A stretch of DNA of 8,548 bases from Methanobacteriota archaeon (GCA_030637925.1 DAOWFR010000080.1:1-8548); one strand, 5' to 3'; counted from the first letter of the stretch, positions 530 through 8,548 are shown. Notes: generated by a model from the letters alone, not told the origin. Translations and numbers: made by a program.

Positions 530-1189
530 ATGAAACAAAACTGGTTTGTTATTTTCATGGGAGTGTTGTTTCTTGGCTCAATATGGGGTATTTTAGAAGC
601 AACCATGGGCAATGTGTTGCATTGGATTGGTCTTCATCCTTACACCGGCCTTATCATGACATCTATAGGCACAGGCTTGATGAGCCTTGCACGAAGACTG
701 TATAGAGTAAGAGGTATAGGAATATTTATGGGATTTATAGCGGCTGGTTTTAAAGCAATAGACTTTTTAATACCAGGAAGCAATGTGCTAAGACCAATTG
801 TTGCTATCATCTTAACAGCTCTTGCATTTGAATCAATCATGGCAGTAGCAGACAAAGTAAAGCAGATGCATGTTCAGCTTAACAAAGCACTAGCAGGCTT
901 TGCACTAGGCTATGTGTCTCTTGCTGCTTTTGCTTATTTCACAGCTTATGTATTAAAGTTTAATTACTGGCTAAAGATGGGAGCCTTAGGAATATTAAAA
1001 TATCTTGGAACAGAGGGATGGAAATTCGGCATAGGAGCAATGCTGTTCATGTTATTAGGGTATAATGTTGTTCCAATAACCGACAAGCTATTAAAAATAA
1101 GGCTTGATAAAATCGTAAGTACAAATCCATTCTATGCAGTGTCAGGAATATTTACAATAGCTGCTCTTATTTTTGTGATAGTGGTATAA
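530..1189 (+). CDS. Polytopic membrane protein of unknown family, about 7 predicted TM helices
   Basis: 219-aa ORF with alternating hydrophobic stretches. A GAGGTGG Shine-Dalgarno-like motif at 519-525 sits 4 nt before the ATG. The gene starts 10 nt after the upstream stop, and its TAA overlaps the next ATG (TAATG at 1187-1191). Confidence 0.75.
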   Translation: MKQNWFVIFMGVLFLGSIWGILEATMGNVLHWIGLHPYTGLIMTSIGTGLMSLARRLYRVRGIGIFMGFIAAGFKAIDFLIPGSNVLRPIVAIILTALAFESIMAVADKVKQMHVQLNKALAGFALGYVSLAAFAYFTAYVLKFNYWLKMGALGILKYLGTEGWKFGIGAMLFMLLGYNVVPITDKLLKIRLDKIVSTNPFYAVSGIFTIAALIFVIVV

Positions 1190-1689
1190 TGAACATAATC
1201 ATATCAGGAGCAAAACATTTTGGAAAAACAACAGTTGCACAAAAACTGGTTGAAAAACTAAAACAAGATAATATTCTTGTTGGTGGAATCCTCTGCATAG
1301 GAGATGATATTACAGATGTAATAACTGGTGAAAAACACAGATTTCTTTACAAACAAGAGATGCCTGATTCCCAGAGAATAGGGTCTAATTATATTAAGAA
1401 TAAAGTAATCAGATTTGCAGAGCAAACCATAGAAAACTCTGTTAAAACAGACAAATACACTGTGATTGATGAGTATGGTAAACTAGAATTAAAAGAAAAA
1501 GGCTTTCATAACATTACAAAGCAAAGCCTAGAGTCTAACAAATGCATAATTCTTATCAGAAACATCAATGTTAAGCCTTTCTTAGAAAGATTTAAGCAAC
1601 ACCAATTCAAAGTCTATGAAATTACACAGCAAAACAGAGATAATCTTCATAAAGAAATCTTTGATTATATTTCTGAATCAGTGCGCTAA
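1189..1689 (+). CDS. P-loop NTPase, THEP1/NTPase_1-like
   Basis: N-terminal Walker A 'ISGAKHFGKTT' and Walker B-like 'VIDEYGKLE' (family consensus is about iDEiGkmE). The 166-aa size is typical of archaeal THEP1-type NTPases. The start overlaps the upstream stop by 1 nt. Confidence 0.75.
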   Translation: MNIIISGAKHFGKTTVAQKLVEKLKQDNILVGGILCIGDDITDVITGEKHRFLYKQEMPDSQRIGSNYIKNKVIRFAEQTIENSVKTDKYTVIDEYGKLELKEKGFHNITKQSLESNKCIILIRNINVKPFLERFKQHQFKVYEITQQNRDNLHKEIFDYISESVR

Positions 1690-2190: not shown

Positions 2191-2265
2191 TTGATGAAAA
2201 ACCACTCCAAACCAAAAACCTTATTAACCAGAATTAACCTTCCACTCTATATTGGGGGTGTTTTT

Positions 2266-3084
2266 GTGGAGAATACTGTCTTATTCTTAGGCACAGGCGG
2301 AGACTCAATAGTTGTAGGTAAGCAGATACGTGCCAGCGGAGGCATTATTCTTGAGCTTGAAGGCAACCAGTTCTTACTAGACCCTGGTCCTGGTTGCTTG
2401 GTAAGAGCTAGGCAAGCAGAGGTTAGTATTAGGAATACTATTGCTGTTCTTGTAAGCCATGCTCATACTAATCATTCCAATGACTTGAATGCTGTGCTTG
2501 AAGCCCTGAGTGTTTCTGGTCTTGACAGGATAGGTGTGGTTGTGTGTAATAAGAAGGTTGTTAATGGTGATGAAAAAGAATTACCTGTTCTTAAGAATAG
2601 GAGTCGTAACTTTGTTGAAAAAATCCTTCCTCTTGGTCCAGGTTCAAAAATAAGTATTAATAATGTTAATATAATAACCACAAAAACCAAGCACTTTGAT
2701 TCAGAAGGCACAGGCTTTATATTTGAAACACCTAAGTACAGAATAGGTTATACTTCTGATACTGAGTTCACAGAGGAAATAGCTGACCAGTATAGCAAGT
2801 GTGGAATGCTTATTCTTAACTGTAAACATCCTTTGGGTGTGAAGCAAAAAGGTCATCTTAGCACTGATGATGCTATTAAGTTTATACAAAAAGCAAAGCC
2901 TAAATTAGCAGTAATAAATCATTTTGGAATAAAAATGATAGAAGCCAACCCTATGTATGAGGCAAGAGAGATACAAAAGGAGTCCAAGGTGGAAGTGGTG
3001 GCTGCTAAGGATGGCTTATTGATTAATCCAGTGTCTTTTTCTTCAAGAATGAGGCAGGTGACACTGGAGCCTTTTGGTGAATAA
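2266..3084 (+). CDS. MBL-fold metallo-hydrolase (RNase Z / PhnP-like beta-lactamase superfamily)
   Basis: Family motifs appear in order: N-terminal FLGTGG, LLDPGPG, SHAHTNH (an HxHxDH variant), KH, YTSDTEF and INHFG. I place the start at GTG 2266 because GGGGGTG (2254-2260) lies 5 nt upstream. The tracked TTG 2191 / ATG 2194 starts fall inside or just after the TATA region shared with the SRP RNA, and they would add 25 non-family residues. The stop at 3084 is firm. Confidence 0.8.
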   Translation: MENTVLFLGTGGDSIVVGKQIRASGGIILELEGNQFLLDPGPGCLVRARQAEVSIRNTIAVLVSHAHTNHSNDLNAVLEALSVSGLDRIGVVVCNKKVVNGDEKELPVLKNRSRNFVEKILPLGPGSKISINNVNIITTKTKHFDSEGTGFIFETPKYRIGYTSDTEFTEEIADQYSKCGMLILNCKHPLGVKQKGHLSTDDAIKFIQKAKPKLAVINHFGIKMIEANPMYEAREIQKESKVEVVAAKDGLLINPVSFSSRMRQVTLEPFGE

Positions 3085-3129: not shown

Positions 3130-3684
3130 ATGGCTTTTTTTGTTTTCAGCATTAAACTCCTGCTTCAAAGGTTTGCTGAACTAGTAGGAGGTCCTTTTGT
3201 TAATTCTAGCATGCTCTGGATTGCTCTGCCATTACTAGTTACCTTGATAGTAATGGAATTATATTTTGGCAGGTACAAGAAAGAGAAACTTGGCTGGAAC
3301 ACAGCTTTAACCAATACCCTTGTTCTTATCTTTGTCTCATTAAACCTTTTTCAGCGTGTCTTCACAACTTATGAAGGAGGTTTTTTCAAGGTGATAATCT
3401 CAACAGGGTTTTTTGTGTCATTACTTGTTTTCATACTAGGCATTCTCTTATTCCTAACTGACTTCTTTCATTGGATATCAAAAAAGATAGCTTTTGTAAT
3501 CTCTGCTCATCTGTCAGTAAACACAACTGCTTATGTAGCAGTAGTTATAGTCTATAACCAGCTTCCTCTTGACTTTATGACCATACTTGCTTGGCTGCTG
3601 CTGATAATACTCTTAGGAATAATCTTTTTCTTTGTAAAGAGAGTAGAACCAAAAGCAGAATCTAAAGAATTAAGTGATTCATAA
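3130..3684 (+). CDS. Polytopic membrane protein of unknown family, about 5 TM helices
   Basis: 184-aa ORF with repeated hydrophobic helices and a charged C-terminal tail (VKRVEPKAESKELSDS). Its 3' end overlaps the convergent protease gene by 6 nt. Confidence 0.7.
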   Translation: MAFFVFSIKLLLQRFAELVGGPFVNSSMLWIALPLLVTLIVMELYFGRYKKEKLGWNTALTNTLVLIFVSLNLFQRVFTTYEGGFFKVIISTGFFVSLLVFILGILLFLTDFFHWISKKIAFVISAHLSVNTTAYVAVVIVYNQLPLDFMTILAWLLLIILLGIIFFFVKRVEPKAESKELSDS

Positions 3685-4617
3685 TAGCAAAATAATAACA
3701 TAACCCGCAAAGCAGCCAGCAGTTATAAAAGGCATTGCAGGATAGAACTTGTCCTTTTTTGCAAATATAAATAATAAACTAAGAGCAATCATTGTTGTAA
3801 AAGTTATTATTAAGCTCTGGTAAAGAGCAGCTGTTTTTGATAAGCCCTGTACTATAAGATTCTCCATTACAACTCCTGTGAAGATCAAGGGAAAAGCAAT
3901 ATCTCCTCCTCCTAGAATAGCGTTTTTTCTTTGAACCCTTTGCTTTGATATTTTTGATGCTTTAAAACTTTTAGGAGGCCCTGCTATTTTCCCAACTTCT
4001 GCTTCAAGACCTTGTTTCTTAGGAGTGTAAGGGATGAACAAGCCTGCAAACACCTTGCTCTTAACCTGGAACTTAGCCATTCTTACCATGTGCTTGCTCT
4101 TAAAAACAGCATAAACATCATATAATGAGATTATTATTAAGAGGATAGCTACCCAGAGTATATTAAGCATAGGAACAAGAAACACTGCAATACCAGCATA
4201 CATCAATAGCTCTGTAATATTATGGACAAAGACGTTGGGTTTCCAAACCTTTAGGATAGCAAGTATAAGAGCTATTATTAATGCAATGAATTTGTGAAAA
4301 ATAACTCCTAGTGCAAGGCTTATGGCAATGAACACTGCTAGGAAGAACCAGGTTTTCCATAACTTAATCTTTTTCATCCTGATAATTAGCAACACTAATA
4401 ATGTGCCTATGAGCAAGCCTATTGCTATGTAAGCAAAAGCACCCATACTTGTTACTTCTGGTCTTGGACCAAGGCTTGTTTCCTCATGAACAATAGTTGT
4501 AACACCTTCAACAACCTTGACTTCTTTGATATCAATATTAACAAGTGCCAATCCAATAAGTTGTGCAAGTACAAAGAACAAGACCAGGATTATAGTAATC
4601 TTTAAGTCATGTTTCAT
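3679..4617 (-). CDS. Presenilin/signal-peptide-peptidase-like intramembrane aspartyl protease (archaeal PSH type, A22 family)
   Basis: About 9 TM helices carry the family's three signature motifs in the correct order and spacing: a YD motif in a TM helix ('SLYDVYAVF'), GxGD ('LGGGDIAFPL') after a basic cytoplasmic loop, and a PAL-like 'YPAMPF' near the C-terminus. Confidence 0.85.
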   Translation of the reverse strand: MKHDLKITIILVLFFVLAQLIGLALVNIDIKEVKVVEGVTTIVHEETSLGPRPEVTSMGAFAYIAIGLLIGTLLVLLIIRMKKIKLWKTWFFLAVFIAISLALGVIFHKFIALIIALILAILKVWKPNVFVHNITELLMYAGIAVFLVPMLNILWVAILLIIISLYDVYAVFKSKHMVRMAKFQVKSKVFAGLFIPYTPKKQGLEAEVGKIAGPPKSFKASKISKQRVQRKNAILGGGDIAFPLIFTGVVMENLIVQGLSKTAALYQSLIITFTTMIALSLLFIFAKKDKFYPAMPFITAGCFAGYVIILLL

Positions 4618-4704: not shown

Positions 4705-5148
4705 ATGAGGTTTGCTAATAACATCAAAGTCAGTGTCTTTGTTAAGCCAGAAGAAGACGAGGCAAGTATTAAAAAACATCTTTTAGCTTTATTCCCTTTT
4801 GACTTAGAGCAGGAAAAAATAATTTTTAATAGGAGCAATGCTACTGGTTTTAATCAAAAAGAAATAGTAATTCTTGAAGTTGATTTAAAAAAAGAGAGGC
4901 ATACAAACGCTTTTCTTAACTTTCTTAAAGAAAAACTTAATGAGCAGCAAAAATCAGTTCTTGTAAAGCAGGAGAACAGACTTGATGATGAGTGCAACTT
5001 ATTCATTAGATTAGATAAGAATAAACTCTTGAACAATGAGTTTTGGATTACAGACTCTGGAGAGTGCTACCATATAAGGATTAGTATTGCTGCTTTTCCA
5101 AAGAAAAAGGAAAAGGCAAGGGTAGTGGTGGAGAAGATATTCTCTTAG
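4705..5148 (+). CDS. DUF54 / COG1325-type RNA-binding protein ('predicted exosome subunit' family)
   Basis: The 147-aa size and pattern (IKVSVFVKPEEDEASIKKHLLALFP ... ATGFNQKEIVILEV ...) match my recollection of the archaeal RNA_binding/DUF54 family. No search was run. Confidence 0.5.
   Translation: MRFANNIKVSVFVKPEEDEASIKKHLLALFPFDLEQEKIIFNRSNATGFNQKEIVILEVDLKKERHTNAFLNFLKEKLNEQQKSVLVKQENRLDDECNLFIRLDKNKLLNNEFWITDSGECYHIRISIAAFPKKKEKARVVVEKIFS
5098..5148 (+). repeat. Left copy of a diverged direct repeat, formed by the 3'-terminal 16 codons plus TAG of the DUF54-like gene
   Basis: Nt 5116-5145 match 7603-7632 at 26/30 without gaps (offset 2487 nt). The core AGTGGTGG[A/G]GAAGATATTCTC is 20/21 identical (5124-5144 vs 7611-7631). 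The encoded peptides are PKKKEKARVVVEKIFS* and PQKKKKRAREVVGKIFS*. Confidence 0.8.
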
Positions 5149-5176
5149 AGGCCTTTGATGTTTTATAATAAAAACC

Positions 5177-5227
5177 TTTTTATATGGATACTTTGCTCTC
5201 AGGATAATATTATGATTTGGGAGGGGT
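5177..5227 (+). promoter_or_regulatory. Candidate TATA box plus strong Shine-Dalgarno site for the 779-aa gene
   Basis: TTTTTATATA lies at about 5176-5185. GGGAGGGGT at 5219-5227 lies 5 nt before the ATG at 5233. Confidence 0.45.
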
Positions 5228-5232
5228 AACAT

Positions 5233-7572
5233 ATGTTTTTTAAGTTGAGGCAGAATCAGGTTTACTCTGTTATTTTGTTCTTGTTTTTTTTGTCTGGTGT
5301 TTCTGCTTTGGTTTATGAGATTGTTTGGGTTAAGTGGTTTGGTTATGTTTTTGGTGTTACTATTTATGCTGTTACTACTGTTGTTGCTGCTTTTATGGGT
5401 GGTTTGGCTCTTGGTAGTTTTTTGTTTGGTAGGTATGTTGATAGGCAGAGGAATCCTTTGAGGATTTATATTTTATTGGAGTTGGGTATTGCTTTGTATG
5501 CTGTTTCTTTTCCTTTGATTATTAAGAAGGTTAATTTGTTGTACATAGTTTTAAGTAAATACTTGGGTTTTTCTGTTTTTGTTCATAGTGTTGGTATGTT
5601 TGTGTTGGGTTTTATTTTGTTGTTGATTCCTACTGTTTTTATGGGTGGTACTTTGCCTGTTTTGACTAGGTTTATTGTTAGGAAGGTGGAGAGGGTTGGT
5701 GAGAGTGTTGGTGATTTGTATTCTTTGAATACTTTTGGTGGTGCTGTTGGTGTTCTTGTTAGTGCTTTTGTTCTTATTCCTGTTTTGGGTCTTATTTTTA
5801 CTGCTTATGTTGCTATTTTGTTTAATTTGTTTATTGTGTTGGCTTTTGTTTTGCTTAATTATTTGGTTAAGAAGAGGGTTGTTTATAAGTCAGAGGTTGT
5901 GGTTGAAAGACAGGAGAAAAAACTTCCAACTAAGCTTTTTAGTAAATCAACCTTGTATCTTATCTTACTTGTTTTTGGTTTGTCTGGTTTTGCTAGTTTG
6001 GCTTATGAGATTTTGTGGACTAGGATGTTGATGCCTGTTTTTGGTATTCATGTTTATTCTTTTGCTACTGTATTGGCGATTTTTCTTATTGGTATTGCTG
6101 TTGGTAGTTTGATTTTTTCTAGGTTTTTGAATGATTTTTTTAGGGTTTTGGATAAGGAGAATAAGCTTCTTTTTGTTTTTGCTTTGGTGGAACTATTCAT
6201 TGGTGTTGGTGGTGTGTTGTCTGTAATCTTGTTTAATTATTTTGTGTCTGTTGGGAATACTACGCTGAGTAGGTATCTTATTGTGATTGTTCCTACTCTT
6301 TTTATGGGTATAAGTTTTCCTTTGGTGGTTAAGATTTTGGGTAGGAATATTAAGTTTTTGGGCAGGACTGTTGGTAGTGTTTATTCTGTTAATACTGTTG
6401 GTGCTATTTTGGGTACTTTTGTGGCTGGTTTTTTGCTTTTGAGGTTTTTTGGTATTCAGACTAGTGTTTTTTTGGTTGCTGTGATTAATTTTGTTTTGTG
6501 TTTGGTTATTTTGTTGTTGTGTAAGGATGTTAAGAAGGTTTTGAAGACTGTGTTGATTGTTGTGGTAGTTGTGTTTATATTCTTAACTCCTGTAATGAAT
6601 CATTATGCTAGTGAAAATGTATTTAAATATTCTGGAGCGAAATATGGACTTTTAGAAGAGATACTATATTATAAGGAAGGTGTTACTGCATCAGTTACTG
6701 TATACAGAGAAAAATACAAGGAAAATATGTATTCATTATCTATGCAAGTAAATGGTAAGACGCACGCTTCAACTATCCCGGGAGACACAGAGCATTTGAG
6801 CTTATTATCACACTTACCGCTTTTGCTTCATGAAAACCCAGAAGAAACCTTGTTTGTTGGGTTAGCAACTGGGATAAGTGCTGGTGTTGCTACGCTTTAT
6901 CCTGTGAAAACAATTGATGTGGCTGAGATTTCTCCTGAAGTTGTTGAGGCGTCAGAGTTGTTCTCTGATTTTAATTATAATCTTTCAAAGGATGCTAGGT
7001 ATAACTTGATTATTGATGATGCGAGGAACTATTTGTTAAAGACTGATAAGAAGTATGATGTGATATCTTCAGATCCAACAGATCCTTATGTTGCTGGTTC
7101 TGGAAATTTGTTTTCAAAAGATTACTTTGAACTGATTAAAAGCCGGCTTAGAAGAGGAGGAGTTGTTGCTCAATGGGTTCCGTTGTACATGATGTCTAAT
7201 GATGATTTTAAGACAGCTATTAAGACGTTTCAATCTGTTTTCCCTCATATTAATGCTTGGCTTTATGGAGGAGATATTATCCTAATAGGTTCAGATCATG
7301 AAATAAGAATTAACCAAAAGAGATTTGAGAAAGCATTTGAGGATGAGAGAATAAGAGCTGATTTTGAGAAGATTAATATAAGTAATAGTAGTATGTTACT
7401 TAGTTTCTTCTTGTTTAATGAAACAGAGGTTGAAGAGTATGTTAAAGGTGCTAGGATAAACACAGATGACGCCCCGCTCCTGGAATATAACACTCCCAAG
7501 AGCTTGCGTAAAAAAACAATTCCTGAGAACAGGAGAAGCATAGAGGAGTTCAAGAGAAGAAGCAAGAGTTAA
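5233..7572 (+). CDS. Fused polytopic membrane domain / spermidine-synthase-like (SAM-dependent methyltransferase fold) protein
   Basis: The N-terminal ~450 aa contain about 12-14 TM helices in two homologous halves, each opening with LSGxSxLxYEIxW. The C-terminal domain carries the spermidine-synthase-fold pattern LFVGLATGIS...IDVAEISPEVV...LIIDDARNYL...YDVISSDPTDP...LF...GGV. This matches proteins commonly annotated as 'fused MFS/spermidine synthase'. Confidence 0.85.
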   Translation: MFFKLRQNQVYSVILFLFFLSGVSALVYEIVWVKWFGYVFGVTIYAVTTVVAAFMGGLALGSFLFGRYVDRQRNPLRIYILLELGIALYAVSFPLIIKKVNLLYIVLSKYLGFSVFVHSVGMFVLGFILLLIPTVFMGGTLPVLTRFIVRKVERVGESVGDLYSLNTFGGAVGVLVSAFVLIPVLGLIFTAYVAILFNLFIVLAFVLLNYLVKKRVVYKSEVVVERQEKKLPTKLFSKSTLYLILLVFGLSGFASLAYEILWTRMLMPVFGIHVYSFATVLAIFLIGIAVGSLIFSRFLNDFFRVLDKENKLLFVFALVELFIGVGGVLSVILFNYFVSVGNTTLSRYLIVIVPTLFMGISFPLVVKILGRNIKFLGRTVGSVYSVNTVGAILGTFVAGFLLLRFFGIQTSVFLVAVINFVLCLVILLLCKDVKKVLKTVLIVVVVVFIFLTPVMNHYASENVFKYSGAKYGLLEEILYYKEGVTASVTVYREKYKENMYSLSMQVNGKTHASTIPGDTEHLSLLSHLPLLLHENPEETLFVGLATGISAGVATLYPVKTIDVAEISPEVVEASELFSDFNYNLSKDARYNLIIDDARNYLLKTDKKYDVISSDPTDPYVAGSGNLFSKDYFELIKSRLRRGGVVAQWVPLYMMSNDDFKTAIKTFQSVFPHINAWLYGGDIILIGSDHEIRINQKRFEKAFEDERIRADFEKINISNSSMLLSFFLFNETEVEEYVKGARINTDDAPLLEYNTPKSLRKKTIPENRRSIEEFKRRSKS

Positions 7573-7581
7573 CATTTGTAC

Positions 7582-7635
7582 CCCCAAAAGAAAAAAAAGA
7601 GAGCAAGAGAAGTGGTGGGGAAGATATTCTCCTGA
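7582..7635 (+). pseudogene. Right copy of the direct repeat: an orphan 3'-end fragment of a DUF54-like gene (17 codons plus TGA)
   Basis: It translates to PQKKKKRAREVVGKIFS*, with 12/17 residues identical to the C-terminus of the 4705-5148 gene. It has its own in-frame stop and no upstream gene body. It begins 10 nt after the TAA of the 779-aa gene. Confidence 0.6.
7586..7599 (-). terminator. Oligo-T run, candidate archaeal terminator for the 7641-8039 gene
   Basis: The minus strand reads CTTTTTTTTCTTTT, about 42-55 nt downstream of the minus-strand stop at 7641-7643. Archaeal termination commonly uses oligo-T tracts. Confidence 0.35.
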
Positions 7636-8039: not shown

Positions 8040-8140
8040 TTTTTCCCTCCTTTTTCTCTTAGATGGTATTAGTAACATATAAACCTTTGTTGTAGTATAT
8101 CACCACAACTTTTATATATGATTAAGAATCATCTCTTTCT
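8040..8140. promoter_or_regulatory. Divergent promoter/operator region between the hypothetical gene (-) and the TrmB-like gene (+)
   Basis: On the plus strand, TTTTATATA (8110-8118) is centred about 27 nt upstream of the ATG at 8141, suggesting a leaderless mRNA. On the minus strand, TTTATAT (plus 8077-8083) lies about 27 nt upstream of a short SD-containing leader. A perfect inverted repeat ATGATT-AAG-AATCAT lies at 8118-8132. An imperfect inverted repeat GTTGTAG-N7-CCACAAC lies at 8089-8109. Confidence 0.4.
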
Positions 8141-8548
8141 ATGGAAGTAAAAGAATTAATGGACATAGGCTTGACCAAGAACCAGGCAAGGGTTTATCTT
8201 GAGCTCTTAAAATCTCCTGGCCAGAACCCTGGCAGGCTTGCAAAGAAATTATCTATCGACAGGTCATTCATGTACAGCATTCTTAACAGCCTTATAAACA
8301 AGGGCTTATGCAGTTACATAGTAAAGGAAACCAAGAAATATTTTTATGCAACCAATCCTGACAACCTGTTAAAGGAAATAGAAGAAAAAAGAAGCAAGGC
8401 TGTTGGGGTTGTTGAAAAATTAAAAAAAATAAGCCAAGAACCTTCTGAGGGAGAGCTGGTCAGCTTGTATGAAGGCAAAGCAGGATTGAAAGCCTTTGTG
8501 AGGGATTTCTTGGAATCAGATTCTTTCTGCACTCTTGGGGGTGGAGGC
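8141..8548 (+). CDS. TrmB-family winged-helix transcriptional regulator, N-terminal part; the gene runs off the window end
   Basis: The ORF has no stop before the window end, so it is absent from the track. It is open for 136 codons from the ATG at 8141: MEVKELMDIGLTKNQARVYLELLKSPGQNPGRLAKKLSIDRSFMYSILNSLINKGLCSYIVKETKKYFYATNPDNLLKEIEEK... This matches the TrmB N-terminal HTH pattern (L..lGLt..Ea.vYl.Ll..G..t...la....i.R..vY..L..L..kGl......p..y.a..P..l). Confidence 0.85.
   Translation, partial: MEVKELMDIGLTKNQARVYLELLKSPGQNPGRLAKKLSIDRSFMYSILNSLINKGLCSYIVKETKKYFYATNPDNLLKEIEEKRSKAVGVVEKLKKISQEPSEGELVSLYEGKAGLKAFVRDFLESDSFCTLGGGG

Follow-up and report, generated by a model that had tools for sequence, protein, structure and literature searches.

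A stranded DUF54 gene tail behind a fused MFS/spermidine synthase gene in a DPANN archaeon: a probable scar of recombination between two diverged versions of one locus

The window analyzed here is an 8.5-kb contig (8,548 nucleotides, nt; GCA_030637925.1 DAOWFR010000080.1:1-8548). Its host is an uncultured low-GC DPANN archaeon, which is labeled as Nanoarchaeota or Woesearchaeota in public records. As listed in Table 1, the resident DUF54 (PF01877) 'RNA binding' gene is followed by the gene g8, by a second copy of the DUF54 3' end (the orphan), by the convergent ORFan gene g9 and by the start of a TrmB-family regulator gene. The DUF54 gene scores 80.5 bits against PF01877 (gathering cutoff 26.9). 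Its last 16-17 codons and its stop codon recur behind g8. The orphan begins 9 nt past the TAA of g8 (7570-7572) and is in the same frame as g8. Nothing supports a meaning of this frame, and the chance expectation is one in three. An earlier note, made from the window sequence alone, had described this recurrence, and its coordinates and numbers hold, with the onset of the orphan measured here as 9 nt past the stop codon. The earlier note read the insert as an integrative element with attL/attR-like ends, and gave recombination with a diverged homologous locus as the alternative. Contigs of relatives compared with the window are designated by L-numbers (L003, L004, L039 and others).

A repeat search aligned 5100-5144 with 7587-7631 at a spacing of 2487 nt with 82% identity (37/45 nt). 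This is the top direct 45-nt pair in the whole window. In 60 Markov shuffles, the best pair reached 29.2 matches on average and 32 at maximum. The full copies (5098-5148 and 7582-7635) are 77-82% identical, and they contain a core of 20/21 matches. The longest exact matches between the copies are 12 nt and 7 nt, located one mismatch apart, an arrangement that could suit the overlap of a tyrosine recombinase and is non-diagnostic. The 20-nt core GTGGTGGRGAAGATATTCTC occurs exactly twice in the window, where 0.01 occurrences are expected even with three mismatches allowed. In 289 kb of related DNA, the core is found at DUF54 3' ends only. Therefore, the core is not a scattered repeat, an outcome that the earlier note had named as refuting its reading.

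The orphan was aligned with the DUF54 3' ends of L004 (84.9% over 53 nt, E = 7e-11), L041 (86.7% over 45 nt, E = 1.6e-10) and L039 (E = 9e-9). The DUF54 tail AAFPKKKExAxxVVxKIFS is conserved among the 120 homologues listed, and the translation of the orphan fits this family tail. According to the alignments, the DUF54 homology is absent to the left of about 7582-7585, and the joint is placed at 7573-7585. The same joint is present in L003, which is an independent assembly from another sample and differs from the window by three single-nucleotide polymorphisms. An assembly artefact is excluded, because the junction recurs in L003. The segment 7582-7635 is thus confirmed as a true relic of a DUF54 3' end. 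A fortuitous match between lysine-rich, low-complexity sequences is hardly credible as an explanation, and so is a chimera made during assembly. The 5' part of the repeat is A-rich, and metagenome contigs can be chimeric. However, the shuffles rule out chance, E values of about 1e-10 link the orphan to DUF54 tails in other genomes, and the tails score 37-63 against the orphan and 18-34 against unrelated loci. A k-mer chimera through the tail would remove g8 and would not put a tail behind g8.

When the tail of each lineage was compared with its own locus, a second copy was detected in the window and L003 alone, except for one uncertain gapped match in L004. This match (L004 14169-14213) has a local score of 43 against L004's own DUF54 tail, compared with 18-34 for unrelated loci. 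It corresponds to the 3' end of another open reading frame (ORF) ending in ALKKKKVKKRSG and a stop codon, with a paralogue immediately downstream. It may be an older second tail relic or a coincidence of lysine codons. A 10-nt match TTCTCTTAGA at 8054-8063 was considered as a third att copy. It is missing from the relatives and was judged to be a chance match.

According to the tail alignments, the orphan is shown to derive from a different DUF54 allele and not from a decayed copy of the resident tail. The orphan differs from the resident copy at 11-12 sites, and at about seven of them it shares the L004 and/or L041 state. These states are AGA, AGA, GAA, G at the third position of a Glu codon and the TGA stop. 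The earlier note had regarded the second copy as the 3' end of a diverged homologue rather than as random local decay, and the AGA, AGA, GAA and TGA shared with L004/L041-type tails bear this out. With three private changes removed, the source of the orphan reads KKKERAREVVEKIFS and a stop codon, and its protein is identical to the P0008/L041 tail (the L041 tail is ERAREVVEKIFS). The orphan-type tail contains ERAREVV, and the resident tail protein ends in KARVVVEKIFS. The resident tail is base-identical to L039 over 5062-5144 and to L040 over 5080-5146; for DUF54 overall, the window is 93.6% identical to L039 and 92.9% identical to L040 at the nucleotide level. Both L039 and L040 are free of g8. 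It follows that the species-level lineage has the resident tail as its native type and that the orphan stems from a different allele.

These data also bear on a duplication of the resident tail in situ followed by divergence, either as a target-site duplication or as a tandem duplication and a subsequent loss. Such a duplication would agree with the direct orientation of the two copies, with their shared register relative to the stop codons and with the one gene between them. It must, however, post-date the split from L039 and L040, yet the orphan already differs at 11-12 of 48-51 nt. About seven of these differences reproduce L004/L041 states, for which the chance of a random match is about one in three each. 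Neither a transposase nor terminal inverted repeats were found, and the repeat is 51-54 nt long and diverged, so that the insert does not fit a transposon or casposon with a short identical target-site duplication. To our knowledge, a target-site duplication of 51 nt is far outside the known ranges, which also counts against this explanation. We consider it very improbable.

The region to the right of the DUF54 gene was compared with g8-free relatives, namely L039 and L040 (93% nt identity), L004, L035-38, L013 and L031. The homology of the window to g8-free strains ends at the DUF54 stop codon (5148 for L039 and 5146 for L040), and it resumes on the right side at 8073-8077 (L004, L035 and L039; 8077 for L039). 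In L039, which shares its sample with the g8-bearing contig L003, the DUF54 gene is followed by a convergent ORFan of 141 amino acids (aa) overlapping its stop codon, and then by TrmB. In L040, yet another convergent gene is present. L004 contains an ORFan of about 118 aa and TrmB, and L035-38 contain ORFans of 198 or 213 aa and TrmB. Other occupants are a 197-aa gene with an AbiEii toxin (L043), a Nudix gene (L005 and L018) and a methyltransferase (L006). In L013 and L031 the slot is empty, and a class-I aminoacyl-tRNA synthetase gene (PF00579, Trp/Tyr type) is located directly after the DUF54 gene. The content is lineage-specific even at 93% identity, and most of the convergent genes have no detectable family. 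The right border at 8073-8077 is common to all comparisons and lies just outside a conserved block with two TATA-like boxes. These comparisons show that, in this Woesearchaeota group, the DNA from the DUF54 stop codon to the TrmB or aminoacyl-tRNA synthetase genes forms a hypervariable slot, whose borders are sharp and common to the lineages. No recombinase, phage or defense domain was detected in g8, g9 or the slot genes of the relatives, except for AbiEii in L043. The earlier note had proposed a search for an empty site. Relatives without g8 indeed exist, but a contig with the DUF54 gene directly followed by g9, which would be the precise empty site of the 2487-nt unit, was not found among the relatives; other unrelated genes are located there.

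The two flanks of the slot show different affinities. The DUF54 gene of the window is closest to that of L039 (identity as above), followed by L004 (79%) and L035 (76% nt). Over the first 136 nt of TrmB, the matches to the window are 127 for L035, 123 for L004 and 121 for L039, and the TrmB of L039 is the most divergent of all compared. The divergence from L039 is 31/488 in DUF54 and 26/201 in the TrmB region (Fisher p = 0.006), in a short comparison in which TrmB is unusually conserved. The affinities of DUF54 and TrmB disagree; therefore, the locus is probably mosaic, and one or more breakpoints would lie between these two genes. A right flank that is specifically L004-like was rejected, as the identity of TrmB is 89-90% with L004 and with L035 alike. 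TrmB and its promoter (8077-8548) are 89-93% identical at the nucleotide level across L004, L035, L037 and L039, compared with 70-79% for DUF54 and the neighboring genes there.

Several further observations were made at the slot borders. The final 65-83 nt or so of the DUF54 gene (5062-5146) are invariant among the window, L039 and L040, and the rest of the gene differs by about 6.5%, mostly at third positions. This could reflect a recent exchange at the slot border or a constraint at the nucleotide level, for example an antisense terminator of the convergent gene. In L019 (3576-4557), the DUF54 gene is broken after codon 113 and fused to a truncated convergent FAD-oxidoreductase-like ORF, and the upstream genes are identical to those of L004. 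Either the DUF54 3' region was rearranged here as well, or the contig is chimeric. In L042 (733-800), the first 25 nt or so after the DUF54 stop codon (AAAAACCCGCAACCTTTATATA) match the aminoacyl-tRNA synthetase promoter of L013 (1075-1120) and L031 (8444-8493). The spacers after DUF54 in the window and L041 are longer and different from that of L042. The spacer type is uncoupled from DUF54 similarity, which is another hint at breakpoints at the stop codon. Because several promoters share the BRE/TATA consensus, the likeness between the L042 spacer and the synthetase promoter was not counted as evidence for a boundary.

The invariant DUF54 tail and the promoter block 8068-8078 might be docking sites for an integrase-less or trans-mobilized cassette exchange in Woesearchaeota, although we regard this as quite unlikely. 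If true, ORFan cassettes without promoters would be exchanged at an expression slot, even among strains that co-occur and are 93% identical. The window would then be a two-cassette array (g8, then g9), and the orphan would be an internal boundary acting as attR.

The gene g8 matches NCBIfam NF037959 'fused MFS/spermidine synthase' with 168.4 bits (cutoff 40), and the Pfam families PF01564 and PF07690 with 68.9 and 38.6 bits. An exact look-up of the g8 sequence gave no record. The order of DUF54, a homologous spacer and g8 is also found in L041 (79% aa identity for DUF54) and L042 (84%). The g8 of L042 is 89% identical to that of the window over 179 residues, and the L041 and L042 contigs both end inside g8. 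The closest other homologues of g8 are 64% and 60% identical and are located at unrelated loci of the archaeal contigs L027 and L029. The remaining relatives are 35-40% identical and mostly bacterial, and g8 belongs to a mainly bacterial family. A search with the C-terminal 249 aa of g8 for fragments extending past g8 gave nothing above 43% identity.

The relatives of g8 allow the integrative-element reading to be weighed. In its most explicit form, the spacer, g8, the 9 nt and the tail copy would constitute a circularizable cassette, whose attP mimics the last 50 nt or so of DUF54. A trans-acting recombinase from elsewhere would insert it, giving the resident copy as attL and the orphan as attR. 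The geometry is that of elements located in 3'-distal regions of archaeal protein genes, in which the element gives a new stop codon, and the repeat of about 50 nt is inside the 29-69 bp range of crenarchaeal att sites (PMC6563490). The 20/21 core, the mosaic of the two copies around it (described below) and the absence of tail mismatches between the window and L039 or L040, in a gene that otherwise differs by about 6.5%, are consistent with this cassette. Further, g8 adjoins DUF54 in three lineages (the window, L041 and L042) and is missing in strains of 93% identity. However, domain searches detected no integrase or transposase in the insert, as the earlier note had already stated, or in any other ORF of the window; the insert ends have no terminal inverted repeats, and no tRNA or tmRNA was found in the window. 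The repeats are only 77-82% identical, with a longest exact match of 12 nt. No DUF54-like or tail-like sequence is present next to the 60-64% homologues in L027 and L029, and no other locus with sufficient flank has a second copy of its own tail beside the slot. The core is absent from the IMG/VR viral contigs. The DUF54-g8 spacer is only 55-73% identical to that of L042, a divergence at least as high as that of the genes, which is unlike a recently spreading element. On balance, the integrative element of the earlier note is not supported, and we regard the cassette with a recombinase acting in trans, which is the main model of that note, as unlikely.

The codon usage of g8 is unusual. The membrane half (5233-6591) has third-position frequencies of 0.05 for A, 0.02 for C, 0.28 for G and 0.65 for T. 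It contains an uninterrupted series of 109 codons with G or T at the end, and its A+C content drops to as little as 0.19 per 300 nt. This is the only T/G-only codon region in the 289 kb of related DNA. The pattern is shared with the L042 orthologue (L042 801-1337), where synonymous sites are 87% conserved compared with 65% in DUF54, and it is missing from the 60-64% homologues. Codon usage is normal in the soluble half and in a 60-nt linker that separates the membrane bundles. A protein chimera as the origin of the split usage was rejected, since both halves have the same nearest relatives, and a plain deamination signature (C>T/A>G) was also rejected. Among published ideas, the NNY 'SECReTE' pattern described for membrane-protein mRNAs (PMC6625729) comes nearest to the extreme T/G usage. 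The membrane half also contains an internal duplication (5280-5434 vs 5968-6124, and 5617-5740 vs 6281-6403) with about 71% nt identity. It corresponds to two tandem MFS-like bundles with a short linker at about 5893-5950.

The alternative given in the earlier note, recombination with a diverged homologous locus, fits better. It agrees with the hypervariable slot and its sharp borders, with the differing affinities of the TrmB flank and DUF54, and with the DUF54-g8 adjacency in two other lineages. We consider it probable, though by no means assured, that the orphan is a scar of host recombination with a linear fragment, in which two diverged versions of the locus recombined through homology on one side and an illegitimate joint on the other. 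One version would consist of DUF54 and then g8, as in L041 and L042. The other version would consist of a DUF54 gene with an ERAREVV-type tail and a TGA stop abutting the convergent g9, and then TrmB. DNA of one version would enter a cell carrying the other. One end would recombine by homology in the conserved flank, and the other end would be joined illegitimately, 9 nt past the g8 stop codon, to about codon 131 of the DUF54 gene of the other allele. Such a process is homology-facilitated illegitimate recombination (HFIR). The outcome would be additive: g8 and g9 are intact, the functional DUF54 gene keeps its full tail, and a second tail is stranded beside g9. Host recombination would be enough, and no dedicated recombinase would be needed. 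We infer both the direction of the transfer and the illegitimate nature of the joint.

Several points weigh against this scar of a linear fragment. The parental right-hand side was not recovered, and no contig was found in which a DUF54 gene with the ERAREVV tail is directly followed by g9. Since L041 and L042 stop within g8, the sequence beyond g8 is not visible in them. The joint lies just 9 nt past an intact stop codon, a neater position than a random illegitimate event would lead one to expect. For TrmB, only about 200 nt were compared with L039. In addition, a mosaic of the two tail copies is a prediction of a crossover in the core and is not required by a one-ended illegitimate joint. 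Such a mosaic is suggested by the alignments, with 4-5 informative sites only. The left half of the orphan (ERARE) is similar to L004/L041, and the right half (GTGGTGG.GAAGATATTCTCC TGA) is similar to the window's own clade, with TTC, with TCC as in L039 and with TGA as in L040. The resident copy ends with TCT TAG, as L041 does. The breakpoint of the mosaic would be inside the core. A crossover within the 20-nt core is thus compatible with the mosaic, but the small number of informative sites leaves it weakly determined.

A single crossover of a circularized fragment inside the tail would give an identical product. In this Campbell-type insertion, a donor fragment from the tail to g8 would be circularized by chance and inserted into the resident tail by a single RadA-mediated crossover. 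The mosaic around the core agrees with it, including the L041-like end of the resident copy, which runs into an L041/L042-like spacer. Donors with the DUF54-g8 arrangement exist, and integrase-less islands with short direct repeats move by host functions (PMC5426353). On the other hand, about 50 nt at about 80% identity is a poor substrate for homologous recombination, a prior illegitimate circularization is needed, and the mosaic is statistically weak. We treat the Campbell-type insertion as a sub-variant of the preferred explanation, to which it adds a small probability of its own. The available contigs cannot separate the linear-fragment, Campbell and att variants.

The convergent gene g9 may explain why the orphan persists. 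No match of g9 was detected in Pfam, NCBIfam, PHROG or PADLOC, and no relatives were found in the IMG/VR viral contigs. According to BLASTP, g9 has no homology to the convergent genes of L004, L035 and L037, which likewise show none among one another. Inspection of the C-terminal translations revealed no resemblance to the convergent genes of L039 and L040. The gap between the orphan and g9 is 5 nt, which is how intact tails adjoin convergent genes elsewhere. In every relative, the convergent gene ends at -20 to +11 nt from the DUF54 stop codon. Therefore, these genes must terminate inside the antisense of the tail. A T8 run is located 42 nt downstream of the g9 stop codon in the antisense of the orphan. 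From its position, we infer that this run is a plausible terminator of g9, formerly inside a DUF54 tail, and that this is the likely reason for the persistence of the orphan. The stranded tail would probably still supply the oligo-T terminator of g9.

Comparable scars are known from other systems. In Rhs, contact-dependent inhibition (CDI) and type VI secretion system (T6SS) effector loci, orphaned 3' ends are produced by 'C-terminal displacement', which is attributed to HFIR (Kirchberger et al., 2017; PMC5361080, where Jackson et al., 2009, is cited on C-terminal displacement). As in these loci, a conserved upstream gene is the homologous anchor, a module comes in and shifts the old 3' end downstream, the orphan kept is from another allele, no integrase is present, and close strains differ in the module. 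Unlike in these loci, a single orphan and no array is observed. The displaced piece is 17 codons of a small RNA-binding-protein gene rather than a toxin tip with an immunity gene, the host is a DPANN archaeon, and the incoming gene is separate and not a new 3' end of the anchor. HFIR has been described in transformable bacteria and E. coli conjugation (PMC3240628), and also by de Vries & Wackernagel (2002) and Prudhomme et al. (2002), as cited in PMC5361080. One homologous and one illegitimate end likewise give additive foreign DNA beside an anchor. In contrast to HFIR in bacteria, the only organisms for which it has an experimental demonstration, the event here is deduced from comparative sequence, and microhomology at the joint is unreadable without the parental sequences.

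Elements carrying integrases insert in 3'-distal regions of archaeal protein genes or in tRNA genes (Krupovic et al., 2019, PMC6563490; Islander, PMC4383910). In common with these elements, direct repeats bracket the insert, one repeat completes the target gene with its own stop codon, a fragment marks the far end, insert-free strains exist, and the repeat falls within 29-69 bp. The present insert differs in that it has no mobility gene, consists of a single gene and has repeats of about 80% identity, and in that the g8-free relatives hold replacement genes and no clean empty site. The H47 island is also small, without its own recombinase and bounded by short direct repeats. It is excised by RecA-independent host recombination, and its mobility was shown experimentally (PMC5426353). 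Unlike in the H47 island, no excision product or circle was observed here. A recombinase encoded within the insert is the defining property of an integrative element, and the present insert lacks it. Two testable features of displacement by HFIR are present: the orphan lies downstream of the acquired g8 and comes from a different allele.

The remaining features of the window are listed in Table 1. The RNA gene there is the sole Rfam match in the window. In near-identical strains (99.8%), the differences are clustered and multi-nucleotide (3745-3754, 4905-4908 and 6225-6228), and one set is spaced by 3 nt. This suggests micro-recombination between co-occurring strains, or consensus calls from mixed strains.

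Table 1. Features of the 8.5-kb window (positions counted from its first nucleotide)
Feature	Position	Strand	Remarks
NTPase	1189-1689		
Archaeal signal recognition particle (SRP) RNA	1891-2165	minus	Rfam RF01857, 124.7 bits
Metallo-beta-lactamase-fold protein	2191-3084		
Membrane protein	3130-3684		
Presenilin-type signal-peptide peptidase	3679-4617	minus	
Resident DUF54/PF01877 'RNA binding' gene, 147 aa	4705-5148	plus	Pfam and NCBIfam; PRK14555-type RNA-binding protein
Repeat copy 1, native DUF54 tail	5098-5148	plus	PKKKEKARVVVEKIFS, stop TAG
Intergenic leader of g8	5149-5232	plus	BRE/TATA-like 5171-5185 (aaaacctttttatat); Shine-Dalgarno 5219-5226 (gggagggg)
g8, fused MFS-like membrane domain and spermidine-synthase domain, 779 aa	5233-7572	plus	
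Joint, g8 stop codon to onset of DUF54-tail homology, 9 nt	7573-7581	plus	CATTTGTAC
Repeat copy 2, orphan DUF54 tail	7582-7635	plus	PQKKKKRAREVVGKIFS, stop TGA
T8 run, candidate oligo-T terminator of g9	7591-7598	minus	Read from sequence
g9, convergent ORFan, ORF of 145 aa	7641-8078	minus	Probable start 8039 behind GGAGG, giving 132 aa
Right border of variable slot: divergent promoter block and start of TrmB-family regulator (from 8141)	8068-8548	plus	Pfam PF01978

DPANN archaea have tiny genomes, and their gene gain is largely inferred from phylogenies. We know of no cultured genetics for them. The scar described here is an ordinary, known kind of event, and it represents no new mobile element or mechanism. 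Its interest is that such a scar is found in a DPANN archaeon alongside co-occurring alternative alleles: the product, co-occurring strains whose alleles lack g8, and lineages with the DUF54-g8 arrangement as possible donors are all visible together. It offers a concrete case, open to dating, in which a gene was acquired additively at a recombination hot spot and the scar fixes the joint within a few bases. Orphaned tails beside strain-specific genes could become a simple counter of such events in metagenome-assembled genomes.

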